Positions 12,610 to 13,147 of a stretch of 64,000 nucleotides of DNA are shown piece by piece (position 1 is the first letter of the stretch; each line of letters starts with the position of its first letter). A program made the position numbers and the translations under genes. Source of the stretch: Deltaproteobacteria bacterium. Its GTDB lineage: Bacteria; Bdellovibrionota_C; UBA2361; SZUA-149; JAITKM01. Under the pieces are notes generated by a model. That model did no database searches. It was given only the letters and a program-made list of their open reading frames with translations, and was not told where the DNA came from. The stretch is from assembly GCA_031278395.1 (NCBI GenBank), contig JAITKM010000007.1, forward strand, positions 139,805-203,804. The letters are read 5' to 3'.

Positions 12610-12775
12610 TATTTCAAAACACGAATAATTTATTTTAAAACACGATATTTTATTTTCTCAAATCACAAACTAATTTATTTCAGAATACAGGCTATTTAAT
12701 TAAATACACGTTTTTTTTAATTAAAATCACAGTATTAATTTATTTTCACGATAGAGCTTTGAGATAATTTTTTTT
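12610..12775. repeat. Array of iteron-like tandem direct repeats (~21-22 bp period; core AAA(A/T)CACG/A then an AT-rich tail)
   Basis: Successive copies: caaaacacgaataatttatttt, aaaacacgatattttatttt, aaatcacaaactaatttatttc, aatacacgttttttttaatt, aaatcacagtattaatttatttt, ttcacgatagagctttgagataatttttttt. Further copies lie at ~12953-13003 and ~13101. Confidence 0.55.
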
Positions 12776-12989
12776 CAAAGCACTATTAATTTGTTAATTT
12801 ACTTAAGTCATTTCACGAAATAATATTAAACAATAGTGAGTTTAGGTTTATATGGACAAATAAGTTTATTTGGTTAGCAAATTTTTTTATTAAACTACAG
12901 AAAAGCGCAGATGGGGAGTGGTTGGATAGTTTTAAAATTAACTCTCTTATTCCAAAACACGATATTTTATTTATTCTATAGTGTTTTGA

Positions 12990-13090
12990 GATAAGATTTT
13001 TTATTTATATTTAATAATTATTTAAAATTATTAAATATTTTTTTTAAAATAAGACTTGAATTTTATTTTTTTTGAGTATATGTTGCGCCG
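12990..13090. promoter_or_regulatory. Near-pure A+T tract (candidate DNA unwinding element) between the iterons and parA
   Basis: ~90 nt almost devoid of G/C (atttatatttaataattatttaaaattattaaatattttttttaaaataagacttgaattttatttttttt), just downstream of the iterons. Confidence 0.4.
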
Positions 13091-13147
13091 TTTTTTAACT
13101 CAAAACACGTTAAAAACGCCTGAAAATCACATCAAATACAAAAAATT

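Follow-up and report, generated by a model that had tools for sequence, protein, structure and literature searches.

A predicted iteron-type origin beside an RPA/TrfA-family initiator gene appears to drive a chromosome-sized replicon across an uncultured Bdellovibrio-like branch

Introduction

The window analysed here, a 64,000-nucleotide stretch of DNA from an uncultured Bdellovibrionota-type bacterium, contains a 783-bp gap (12365-13147) that separates rep (10868-12364, minus strand) from the partition gene parA, which starts at 13148 on the plus strand. Short sequences recur at close intervals within this gap, and the locus raises the question of what these repeats do and what kind of replicon they belong to. 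A preliminary description, made from the letters alone, had read them as the binding array of the adjacent Rep-like protein and not as a CRISPR array, and had named shuffled sequences and related replicons as the places to check this reading. Here, we report the outcome of these comparisons, together with an account of the neighbouring genes.

Results

The locus has the following features; scores in bits derive from the position matrix described below.

10868-12364, minus strand: rep, encoding a 498-aa initiator of the RPA/TrfA family
12507-12534, minus strand: putative rep promoter (TTGTTA, 16 nt, TATAAA)
12608-12753, minus strand: main iteron array, seven abutting 19-bp units
12750-12768, plus strand: reverse-oriented iteron GATAGAGCTTTGAGATAAT, 8.3 bits
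12769-12787 and 12802-12820, minus strand: two more iterons, 12.7 and 15.8 bits, at a spacing of 33 bp
12946-12964, minus strand, and 12977-12995, plus strand: head-to-head iteron pair, 19.7 and 15.7 bits
12996-13071: A+T tract of about 76 nt with 4 G/C, candidate DNA-unwinding element
13094-13112, minus strand: parA-proximal variant iteron TAACGTGTTTTGAGTTAAA, 13.6 bits, 36 bp upstream of the parA start codon
13148-13915, plus strand: parA, Soj-type (Pfam, NCBIfam)
13933-14934, plus strand: parB, Spo0J-type (Pfam, NCBIfam)
14122-14140, plus strand: distal iteron-like site inside parB, 17.9 bits, oriented opposite to the main array
14299-14317, plus strand: distal iteron-like site inside parB, 17.2 bits
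14922-14940, plus strand: distal iteron-like site over the parB stop codon, 19.2 bits

The product of rep matches two Pfam families of plasmid initiators, RPA (PF10134; 71.7 bits against a cut-off of 27, E = 8.9e-20) and TrfA (PF07042; 28.1 bits against a cut-off of 22, E = 1.3e-6). A double winged-helix region makes up its N-terminal part and is followed by a helical C-terminal domain of ~180 amino acids, which is extra relative to TrfA of plasmid RK2 and for which the Pfam search gave no match. The AlphaFold model of the protein best matches domains 2-3 of RctB (E = 2.2e-4), followed by RepE (E = 5.3e-3); at the sequence level, searches of NCBIfam and of the solved structures returned no match. 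No close relative was found among 72,556 plasmids, where the best hit has 39% identity over half the protein, and 2.9 million viral contigs contain a single relative (28%). At least 179 species-level genomes encode this Rep. The putative rep promoter is not among the matches of a consensus promoter scan of the gap, which yielded 6 matches as compared to 6.7 expected from shuffles and is uninformative, as the gap DNA is 78% AT. A block of the form TAC-N-TTGTWA is kept only in the closest subclade (11 of 75 related loci), at 0.21 per kb in the gap and 0.02 outside it.

Within the gap there are 13 copies of a 19-bp bipartite iteron with the consensus tA-TCGTG-nwTyGAaaTAAr (the window shows the minus strand), in which two conserved blocks, TCGTG and GA..TAAr, are ~12 bp apart. 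The seven units of the main array start at 12608, 12629, 12652, 12674, 12695, 12716 and 12735, and each runs 5'-TCGTG...TAAG-3' toward rep. Their cores (the CAC of AACACG/ATCACA) are located at 12620, 12641, 12664, 12686 (TAC), 12707, 12728 and 12747, with spacings of 21, 23, 22, 21, 21 and 19 bp, or roughly two turns of the helix. Tandem Repeats Finder resolves 12609-12682 into 3.4 copies with a period of 21. The preliminary description had placed the repeats at 12613-12775, and the positions of the cores (12620-12747, spaced 19-23 bp) confirm this. The array is degenerate within the window: in the same order, its units score 18.0, 16.9, 8.8, 5.2, 8.7, 5.8 and 9.1 bits with a matrix from which the window was left out, and only two of the seven exceed 12 bits.

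Outside the main array, the reverse-oriented iteron at 12750-12768 and its neighbour at 12769-12787 form a hairpin-capable, terminator-like inverted repeat (I13, 12756-12781). In the head-to-head pair (12946-12995) the cores are 21 bp apart, and the pair produces an inverted repeat of 30 nt that is 77% complementary (I1). This pair accounts for what had been described as a second copy of a larger unit; the duplication is real (12947-13003; repeat families D3 and D4, 78% and 92% identity), but its nature is that of two iterons facing each other, and TTTGAGATAA, previously taken as a separate unit, corresponds to an inverted copy of the iteron's 3' half. The two 'units' represent a single iteron that occurs in both orientations. 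The further core that had been noted at ~13101 is retained as the 13.6-bit iteron at 13094-13112. Of ten related loci inspected by eye, four (L007, L012, L069 and L071) have a site of the form (GTAC)ACGTGyTTTGAAATAAG close to the parA start, and the full palindrome GTACACGTGTAC occupies the parA-proximal place in L010 and L033. The sequence AAAATCACA at ~13127 was also considered as an iteron and scores too low to count as one.

A CRISPR array was rejected, as the units abut (0-4 bp between them), are degenerate and occur in both orientations, and the neighbours identified are rep, parA and parB. The preliminary description was right on this point: the array lacks unique spacers, and cas genes are missing from the identified neighbours.

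The periodicity could in principle have arisen by chance in AT-rich, low-complexity intergenic DNA. Over 12600-12780, self-matching at lags 21 and 22 has a z-score of 2.6 that 2-3 of 1000 dinucleotide shuffles reach, self-matching at lag 66 (z = 3.45) is reached by none of 1000, and the best lag overall is equalled by 5 of 300. The cores CAC[GA] occur 6 times as compared to 1.6 expected, a number attained in 0 of 1000 shuffles. In this interval the repeats thus exceed composition-matched shuffles, the comparison on which the preliminary description had made its reading depend, to a moderate degree (z = 2.6 at lags 21/22), and because the z-scores are modest the evidence for an array from the window by itself is real but moderate. 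Two results are in line with chance, namely that lags 21-22 lose significance across the whole gap after all lags are counted (77 of 300 shuffles attain the maximum) and that the promoter-like matches equal the shuffle expectation. Against it, in addition to the surplus of CAC[GA] cores, a position matrix built solely from the loci of other genomes finds 7 matches of ≥12 bits in the 783-bp gap, where 0.04 are expected; the gap holds 7 of the 13 such matches in the whole 64 kb (background 0.049 per kb). The motif and its spacing are also present in loci of 50-60% GC, and with these comparative data chance is refuted and retains next to no probability.

The comparison set consisted of 75 related loci, one per species genome, with a GC content of 30-60%. 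All share the layout ispA-parB-parA-(iterons)-rep, and the gene order around the locus is conserved. The genes downstream of rep vary among the related loci. An unbiased word count identified TATCGTG, ATCGTGA and TCGTGAA as the top words upstream of rep in most of the 75 loci. The family consensus, derived from 456 sites, yields a site density of 8.9 per kb in the gaps and 0.03-0.27 elsewhere (median 8 per gap), figures that are partly circular because the matrix was trained on TCGTG-anchored sites from gaps; the word count upstream of rep and the leave-window-out test are free of that circularity. Family-wide, 22 bp is the most frequent spacing between sites (131 cases), and harmonics of it appear at 44-45 and 65-67 bp. 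The motif and its 22-bp phasing are therefore kept across the 75 loci, which is the conservation that the preliminary description had asked for in related replicons. For the predicted iterons this comparison is decisive, the support from the window alone being moderate.

Similar repeats accompany distant relatives of Rep. In each of six Planctomycete RPA plasmids, 4-9 direct repeats spaced 22-23 (or 33) bp immediately precede rep, and the parAB genes are located downstream of rep or are unannotated within the stretch fetched. The repeats thus track Rep and not ParB, as in these distant plasmids they are found upstream of rep wherever parAB sits.

The locus was recovered from 80 assemblies as 80 loci, one in each, on contigs of up to 1.87 Mb. 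Pairwise divergence of Rep correlates with that of ParA and ParB (r = 0.84-0.85) and with that of FPPS (0.67). In 56 of 57 loci, GC skew is higher in the flank on the rep side than in that on the parA side (Wilcoxon p = 6e-11), a flip that coincides with, and is inseparable from, the flip in gene orientation, both being marks of an origin; the difference persists in 54 of 55 loci when parAB and rep themselves are excluded. In the window, the cumulative G-C minimum is at 12000. The window carries glyA, argS, tkt, ispA, rnhA, lpxC, ddl, pgi, a gene for RNase E/G (rne/rng) and flagellar genes, with argS, lpxC, ddl, glyA, tkt, pgi and rne/rng as candidate core genes. Two tRNA genes (tRNA-Met and tRNA-Arg) belong with these candidates, and an Rfam search of the window gave nothing else. 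A DNA search with the gap gave no match to known plasmids.

A tract of ~90 nt free of G and C had been noted between the repeats; the tract exists, and its strictly G/C-free part is the 57 nt at 12996-13052. It contains a perfect 13-nt inverted repeat (I18, 13007-13019/13026-13038). In the window the tract is positioned on the parA side of the array, whereas the most AT-rich 50 bp are on the rep side in 61 of 74 related loci, and for this reason ~12535-12607 is an alternative candidate for the unwinding site. The gap in the window contains no DnaA boxes (≤1 mismatch), and across the 75 loci such boxes are not enriched (0.29 per kb in gaps vs. 0.19 outside). A tblastn search with E. coli DnaA as a Pfam-verified query detected no dnaA in the 64-kb window or within 5 kb of the 80 loci. 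GATC is absent from the gap and not enriched across the related loci, and Dam/GATC control of the kind used by Vibrio ori2 or P1 was rejected on the absence of GATC from the gap; the depletion of GATC in the window is probably caused by a DpnII-type restriction system.

ParB has the composition of a chromosomal ParABS-type protein (an N-terminal domain, a helix-turn-helix (HTH) and a C-terminal dimerisation domain), and its best matches among solved structures are chromosomal ParB, Noc and Spo0J. ParA best matches the ParA family protein 8ray and, next in rank, segregation proteins of the Soj type. The distal iteron-like sites of the parB region recur, as 61 of 72 related loci have at least one site within parB or ≤1.3 kb past its 3' end, commonly 45-50 bp beyond it. 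The canonical parS TGTTNCACGTGAAACA is absent from the 64-kb window at ≤3 mismatches and from 5 kb on either side of the 75 loci at ≤2 mismatches, and no shared or repeated palindrome that could be the ParB site was found.

Discussion

The locus combines phased direct repeats, an adjacent gene for a winged-helix Rep and a flanking A+T-rich region, and we conclude that 12365-13147 is very probably the replication origin of a large replicon that carries housekeeping genes, with the repeats as its iterons. That the array binds the adjacent Rep, as proposed in the preliminary description, is supported by the RPA/TrfA identity of the protein, its RctB/RepE fold, the family-wide motif and the distant RPA plasmids; contact between Rep and the iterons is thus inferred from family membership and association. 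By analogy to RepE, pi, TrfA and RctB, the two winged-helix domains of each Rep monomer would bind one iteron, one domain per half-site, such that all bound monomers share a face of the helix. The nucleoprotein filament formed in this way would melt neighbouring A+T-rich DNA, either at 12996-13071 or on the rep side as in most relatives, and Rep would then recruit the replicative helicase. As DnaA boxes are not enriched, initiation is predicted to proceed with no obvious help from DnaA. Again by analogy, the iterons in reverse orientation, together with the parA-promoter site and the three at parB, probably function in titration, handcuffing or autoregulation, and would limit initiation and couple parAB expression to Rep.

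An alternative interpretation is that the Spo0J-type ParB binds the repeats as a centromere of parS-like sites, and that Rep binds something else. This would explain why neither canonical parS nor a shared palindrome was found, and the motif also occurs singly inside or after parB and just upstream of parA, where centromeres and operators are often located; moreover, the stretch CGTGAAA of the iteron also occurs within one half-site of canonical parS, and near parA there is a CACGTG variant. However, the site is asymmetric over 19 bp and is repeated head-to-tail every 22 bp, which is the hallmark of an initiator array and not of a site for a dimeric HTH ParB. The six distant RPA plasmids, in turn, keep phased 22-23-bp repeats at rep even though parAB is beyond rep or unannotated in the stretch, and the array adjoins both AT-rich DNA and the switch in GC skew. 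We therefore regard a centromere as very improbable. The iterons could also be real but belong to an origin that no longer fires, as the relic of a plasmid or mobile element integrated into a DnaA-driven chromosome. The plasmid type of Rep and the variable genes downstream of it would fit such an event, but conservation over 75 loci that range from 30 to 60% GC extends to Rep, to the iterons with their 22-bp phasing and to the genes next to them, Rep has co-diverged with ParA, ParB and FPPS, and each assembly has a single locus. A silent relic would also not yield a GC-skew flip at the gap in 56 of 57 loci, and we consider this explanation extremely improbable.

We are confident in the prediction that the locus is the origin of a vertically inherited, chromosome-scale replicon. 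The origin appears, from the sequences compared, to be conserved across a large uncultured Bdellovibrio-like branch and to drive a replicon of chromosome size. Its replication system is of the plasmid type expected of a chromid, in the form of an RPA/TrfA Rep with an RctB/RepE fold match, and we lean towards a secondary chromosome or chromid. A more radical reading, which we consider unlikely, is that the clade replicates its main or only chromosome with the RPA-type Rep as initiator and its iterons as origin. This would imply that a plasmid-derived system displaced DnaA and oriC next to a Soj/Spo0J-type parAB, and that ParB changed its centromere specificity. The GC-skew switch, contigs of up to 1.87 Mb among core genes and one copy per assembly are consistent with it, as are the co-divergence with housekeeping genes and the absence of DnaA boxes and of a nearby dnaA. 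To our knowledge, secondary chromosomes are common, whereas DnaA replacement in free-living bacteria is nearly unheard of, which weighs against this reading. The usual rsmG-parAB neighbourhood is absent from the conserved neighbours identified at the related loci, and this and the non-canonical centromere fit a second replicon better than the main chromosome. A literature search returned no report of secondary chromosomes, chromids or DnaA loss in Bdellovibrionota/Oligoflexia.

Iteron arrays next to Rep genes are textbook knowledge; what is new is the setting: an origin module comprising a 19-bp Rep site and 22-bp phasing has been retained through 30-60% GC in an uncultured branch of predatory type. 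At the least, the replicon looks like a lineage-defining secondary chromosome in Bdellovibrionota; at most, if true, a main chromosome would be started by a plasmid-type protein in place of DnaA. The conserved iteron is a sequence signature by which origins can be located and replicons counted in the metagenome-assembled genomes of the clade, and the related loci constitute a natural data set for the co-evolution of Rep and iterons.

The parallels to known systems are partial. In Vibrio cholerae, extra initiator sites outside the minimal ori2 serve negative control (PMC3350373, PMC6090056, PMC8565311). Chromosome 2 (ori2, RctB, parAB2) resembles the origin predicted here in that an iteron origin of plasmid ancestry serves a lineage-wide replicon with essential genes, partition genes adjoin the origin and initiator sites are also found outside it. 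The Rep model finds its best structural match in RctB domains 2-3, but at the sequence level Rep, a Pfam RPA protein, has no detectable homology to RctB, and the small Soj/Spo0J-type ParA and ParB are unlike the chromosome 2 system. The ori2 of V. cholerae has short iterons and 39-mers, requires a DnaA box and uses Dam methylation, whereas the gap described here has neither GATC nor a DnaA box.

DnaA boxes occur in many, but not all, iteron-type theta origins. The oriV of RK2/RP4 (IncP) contains four of them; its direct repeats, ~22 bp centre-to-centre, adjoin an A+T-rich region of unwinding, and additional iterons are found beyond the main cluster. The initiators are related (28.1 bits to TrfA, plus RPA), and here too a run of ~22-bp repeats is positioned beside A+T-rich DNA with iterons outside the main cluster; however, the two iterons are unrelated in sequence, no enrichment of DnaA boxes is seen here, and RK2 is a mobile broad-host-range plasmid whereas the present locus is inherited vertically with housekeeping genes. 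In F (ori2/RepE) and P1 (incC-repA-incA), iterons are ~19 bp long, a second set (incA in P1) throttles initiation and inverted iteron-like repeats serve autoregulation by Rep dimers. Shared with these plasmids are a double winged-helix initiator, with RepE ranking second among the fold matches, the ~19-bp iterons and the distant second set. By sequence, however, their Rep belongs to a different family; here, the distal sites bracket parAB and are partly in coding DNA, and the origin has no DnaA boxes. The closest annotated relatives of Rep are from RPA plasmids of Planctomycetota (for example, pEP7_04, pSINAC01 and PALBO1; 29-39% identity in the best matches). These are true plasmids of 25-130 kb in which parAB is not divergent across the origin, unlike here, and their iteron sequences mostly differ from those described above. 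In pEP7_04, the repeat CACCGTGGTTTGAGGGAT is recognisably like TCGTGtTTTGAaATAAG, and the iteron CCGTGGTTTGAGGGAT resembles the iteron motif of the present locus.

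Probable iterons in the gap between rep and parA

Two divergently oriented genes enclose a 783-bp gap (12365-13147), within which lies the region preliminarily described as an iteron array (12610-13140). The gap has a GC content of 22%, as compared to ~35% for the window, and is flanked by the following genes:

10868-12364, minus strand: rep, 498 aa, Pfam RPA 'Replication initiator protein A' (71.7 bits, cut-off 27)
13148-13915, plus strand: parA, Soj-type ParA
13933-14934, plus strand: parB, Spo0J-type ParB

The NCBI annotation of Rep is 'MAG: replication initiator protein A [Deltaproteobacteria bacterium]', and its match to the TrfA Pfam family is weaker (28.1 bits, cut-off 22). 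All three domains of a Spo0J-type protein are present in ParB.

The repeat cores noted previously are real: they occur at 12620, 12641, 12664, 12686, 12707, 12728 and 12747 (core-to-core spacings of 21, 23, 22, 21, 21 and 19 bp), and Tandem Repeats Finder reports a period-21 array at 12609-12682. Dinucleotide-preserving shuffles, the control proposed with the iteron reading, were run on 12600-12780 and on the whole gap. Within 12600-12780, self-matching has a z of 2.6 at lags 21/22 (reached in 2-3 of 1000 shuffles) and of 3.45 at lag 66 (0 of 1000), the best lag overall is equalled in 5 of 300 shuffles, and six CAC[GA] cores are observed versus 1.6 expected (0 of 1000). Periodicity is not significant over the whole 783-bp gap. 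By itself, the repeat signal in the window is real and of moderate strength.

The iteron was defined from 456 TCGTG-anchored sites, all located in the corresponding gaps in 74 related genomes; their consensus is bipartite and 19 bp long, tA-TCGTG-(a/c)-w-T-y-G-A-a-a-T-A-A-r. Iterons in the window are mostly on the minus strand, and the plus strand therefore shows CTTATTTCAAAACACGAAT. The repeat described as an AACACG core plus AATTTATTTT tail does exist and is really one iteron read backwards, while the TTTGAGATAA unit is present as the 3' half of an iteron in opposite orientation, not as a separate element. Similarly, the 'second copy' of a larger unit is a head-to-head pair of iterons at 12946 (minus) and 12977 (plus), with cores 21 bp apart. 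A G/C-free tract put at ~90 nt proved shorter, as its strictly G/C-free part is only 57 nt (12996-13052). Sites in the gap, scored with a position matrix trained without the window, are as follows (start, strand, score):

12608, minus strand: iteron, 18.0 bits
12629, minus strand: iteron, 16.9 bits
12652, minus strand: iteron, 8.8 bits
12674, minus strand: iteron, 5.2 bits
12695, minus strand: iteron, 8.7 bits
12716, minus strand: iteron, 5.8 bits
12735, minus strand: iteron, 9.1 bits
12750, plus strand: iteron, 8.3 bits
12769, minus strand: iteron, 12.7 bits
12802, minus strand: iteron, 15.8 bits
12946, minus strand: iteron, 19.7 bits
12977, plus strand: iteron, 15.7 bits
13094, minus strand: variant iteron 36 bp upstream of parA, 13.6 bits

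Across all 64 kb, 13 matches score 12 bits or more, and seven of them fall in the gap, which makes up 1.2% of the window; such matches have a background rate of 0.049 per kb. Iteron-like sites of 17-19 bits, oriented opposite to the main array, are also located at parB:

14122-14140, plus strand: inside parB
14299-14317, plus strand: inside parB
14922-14940, plus strand: over the parB stop codon

At least one such distal site is found within parB or up to 1.3 kb past its 3' end in 61 of 72 related loci, often 45-50 bp past the end of the gene. Their possible roles are copy control or handcuffing, or one connected with ParB. In these 61 of 72 loci the distal sites form a second cluster at fixed positions, partly inside a downstream Mur-ligase-like gene. 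Two iteron cores in inverted orientation (ACACG, 10 nt, CGTG) lie at 12546-12567, just upstream of the putative rep -35; this pair could be a Rep-dimer operator, but it is not conserved among the other loci inspected.

Conservation of the array in related genomes

Hundreds of Rep relatives with 40-58% identity are present in metagenomes, and the longest contig with the window's Rep measures 301,962 bp. A survey of GTDB representatives (one genome per species) identified 179 rep loci. The best 80 of these come from 80 different assemblies, nearly all labelled as Bdellovibrionota, Bdellovibrionales, Oligoflexia or 'Deltaproteobacteria' metagenome-assembled genomes, on contigs of up to 1.87 Mb, followed by 709, 412 and 336 kb. 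Among loci with sufficient flanking DNA, essentially all keep the gene order ispA (FPP synthase)-parB-parA-gap-rep, often with the Mur-ligase-like gene between ispA and parB.

When the repeated 7-mers upstream of rep are simply counted, TATCGTG, ATCGTGA or TCGTGAA are the top G/C-containing words in most loci, and such words are found across genomic GC contents of 30% to 60%. On the strand that reads rep, iteron density is 8.9 per kb in gaps versus 0.03-0.27 per kb in genes and flanks, a figure that is partly circular as the matrix was trained on gap sites; this circularity does not touch the word count, the spacing peak or the leave-window-out test. Gaps contain a median of 8 iterons, and successive iterons are most often 22 bp apart (131 cases), a sharp peak with harmonics at 44-45 and 65-67 bp. 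Both the motif and its spacing are therefore kept in related loci, the outcome of the consensus and conservation checks that had been suggested.

Two variations were observed in origin gaps. One subclade (L030, L034, L044, L045 and L048) contains four tandem GTTCCAC units with a 10-bp period (cgTTCCACggtgTTCCACattgTTCCACggcgTTCCAC) ~600 bp upstream of rep (e.g. L034 4388-4427), whose TGTTCCACA resembles both a DnaA box (7/9 positions) and a parS half-site. Another locus, L012, has one perfect TTATCCACA inside its iteron array.

Rep as the candidate iteron-binding protein

A sequence search detected no relative of Rep among solved structures. Its AlphaFold model (mean pLDDT 69.5) is of medium confidence in the winged-helix region and of high confidence in the C-terminal domain; its best fold match is RctB domains 2-3 (E 2.2e-4, probability 1.00), followed by RepE bound to its operator (E 5.3e-3), and both are double winged-helix iteron binders. 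The two iteron blocks are ~12 bp apart, which fits one winged-helix domain per half-site. Based on its RPA/TrfA family, these predicted fold matches and the site geometry, Rep is the natural candidate to bind the repeats. The C-terminal domain (~residues 322-498; window 10871-11467, minus strand) is modeled as all-helical with pLDDT ~90, contains an invariant GFLYRA motif (residues 383-388) and has no Pfam match; it could be a helicase-recruitment or oligomerisation module.

The serious rival is that ParB binds the repeats instead, as no other site for it was found near the loci: canonical parS is absent from the 64-kb window (up to 3 mismatches) and from 5 kb either side of 75 loci (up to 2 mismatches), and no shared or repeated palindrome was found in the window or related loci. 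However, asymmetric head-to-tail sites argue against a dimeric HTH ParB, as does a comparison with six Planctomycete plasmids whose Rep is 29-34% identical over most of its length. Directly upstream of its rep gene, each plasmid has 4-9 direct repeats spaced by 22-23 (or 33) bp, and the pEP7_04 repeat CACCGTGGTTTGAGGGAT is recognisably related to TCGTGtTTTGAaATAAG; parAB lies beyond the other end of rep or is not annotated within the stretch fetched. The repeats are upstream of rep whatever the position of parAB, so phased repeats travel with the Rep family, not ParAB, and we regard binding by ParB as quite improbable. Family, modeled fold and plasmid comparison thus favor the original proposal of an array for the adjacent Rep-like protein. 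Overall, the repeats are confirmed and the iteron interpretation is supported with high confidence.

Nature of the replicon

Cumulative G-C in the window reaches its minimum at 12000 and then rises to the window end. GC skew is greater on the rep side than on the parA side in 56 of 57 related loci (means +0.043 vs -0.107; Wilcoxon p = 6e-11), and in 54 of 55 when parAB and rep are excluded. This skew flip coincides with, and is inseparable from, the switch in gene orientation; each of the two signals is typical of a bidirectional origin. Genes in the window include glyA, argS, an amidase gene, tkt, ispA, rnhA, a REC-LpxC fusion, a lipid A acyltransferase gene, ddl, pgi, RNase E/G, glycogen genes, flgFGHI, motA, tRNA-Met and tRNA-Arg. 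The pairwise divergence of Rep correlates with that of ParA and ParB (r = 0.84-0.85) and of FPPS (0.67), so that Rep tracks these proteins as well as they track one another. No close Rep relative is present in 72,556 plasmid records (best 39%, over half the protein), and 2.9 million viral contigs yielded a single relative (28%). Together, skew, gene content, co-divergence and near-absence from plasmids and viruses point to a replicon of chromosome scale that is inherited vertically, as opposed to a mobile plasmid or dead integrated relic.

A validated DnaA query found no dnaA in the window, nor up to 5 kb on each side of the best 80 of the 179 loci, and DnaA boxes are not enriched in 75 related loci. 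We lean towards a secondary chromosome or chromid. The prior favors it, since ~10% of bacteria carry one, always with plasmid-type initiators (PMC4846446, PMC6090056). A ParB without canonical parS is expected of a second replicon that avoids cross-talk, and the usual rsmG-parAB neighbourhood is absent among the conserved neighbours identified. A main chromosome, for which the Soj/Spo0J-type ParA and ParB, the dense core gene content, the 1.87-Mb contig and the single locus per assembly speak, seems unlikely; the remaining probability falls to a megaplasmid or other element. We found no literature on either a chromid or a plasmid-type main initiator in Bdellovibrionota or Oligoflexia. The element is of a known kind, an iteron origin with an RPA/TrfA-type initiator; its interest lies in its lineage-wide conservation on a replicon bearing housekeeping genes in Bdellovibrionota, the absence of both DnaA boxes and canonical parS, the bracketing of parAB by iterons and, if true, a main chromosome run by a plasmid-type initiator.

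Proposed initiation mechanism

By analogy with the RepE, pi, TrfA and RctB paradigms, Rep monomers would fill the phased array, all on one helix face, the complex would melt the A+T-rich DNA alongside, and Rep would recruit the helicase without DnaA boxes. Of 74 relatives, 61 have their AT maximum immediately beyond the last iteron on the rep side; unlike in most of these, the window's extreme AT tract (12996-13071) is on the parA side, and unwinding in the window may occur on either side. The opposite-orientation iterons at 12750 and 12977, the variant site at 13094 and the distal sites at 14122, 14299 and 14922 are candidates for autoregulation, titration or handcuffing, and for coupling of parAB expression to Rep.

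Other features of the window

A DpnII-type restriction-modification cluster (30373-33566, plus strand) encodes a DpnII endonuclease and two methyltransferases, one a D12-class (Dam-like) adenine methyltransferase and the other an N6/N4 methyltransferase. The window is depleted of GATC (92 sites vs ~212 expected), and the origin gap has none. The protein encoded at 23139-24473 (minus strand) joins an N-terminal response-regulator receiver domain to LpxC (UDP-3-O-acyl-GlcNAc deacetylase, lipid A synthesis), an unusual architecture that suggests phosphorelay control of LPS synthesis. A local GC-rich island at 38150-39100 (48% vs ~35%), in which ORFs overlap on both strands and Rfam finds no match, is probably a horizontally acquired gene. 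Finally, a gene 4.5 kb from the origin (17703-18395, plus strand) encodes a 230-aa protein in which residues 96-169 match the C-terminal end of an RNase H domain and residues 5-67 match the N-terminus of the bifunctional RNase H/acid phosphatase model.
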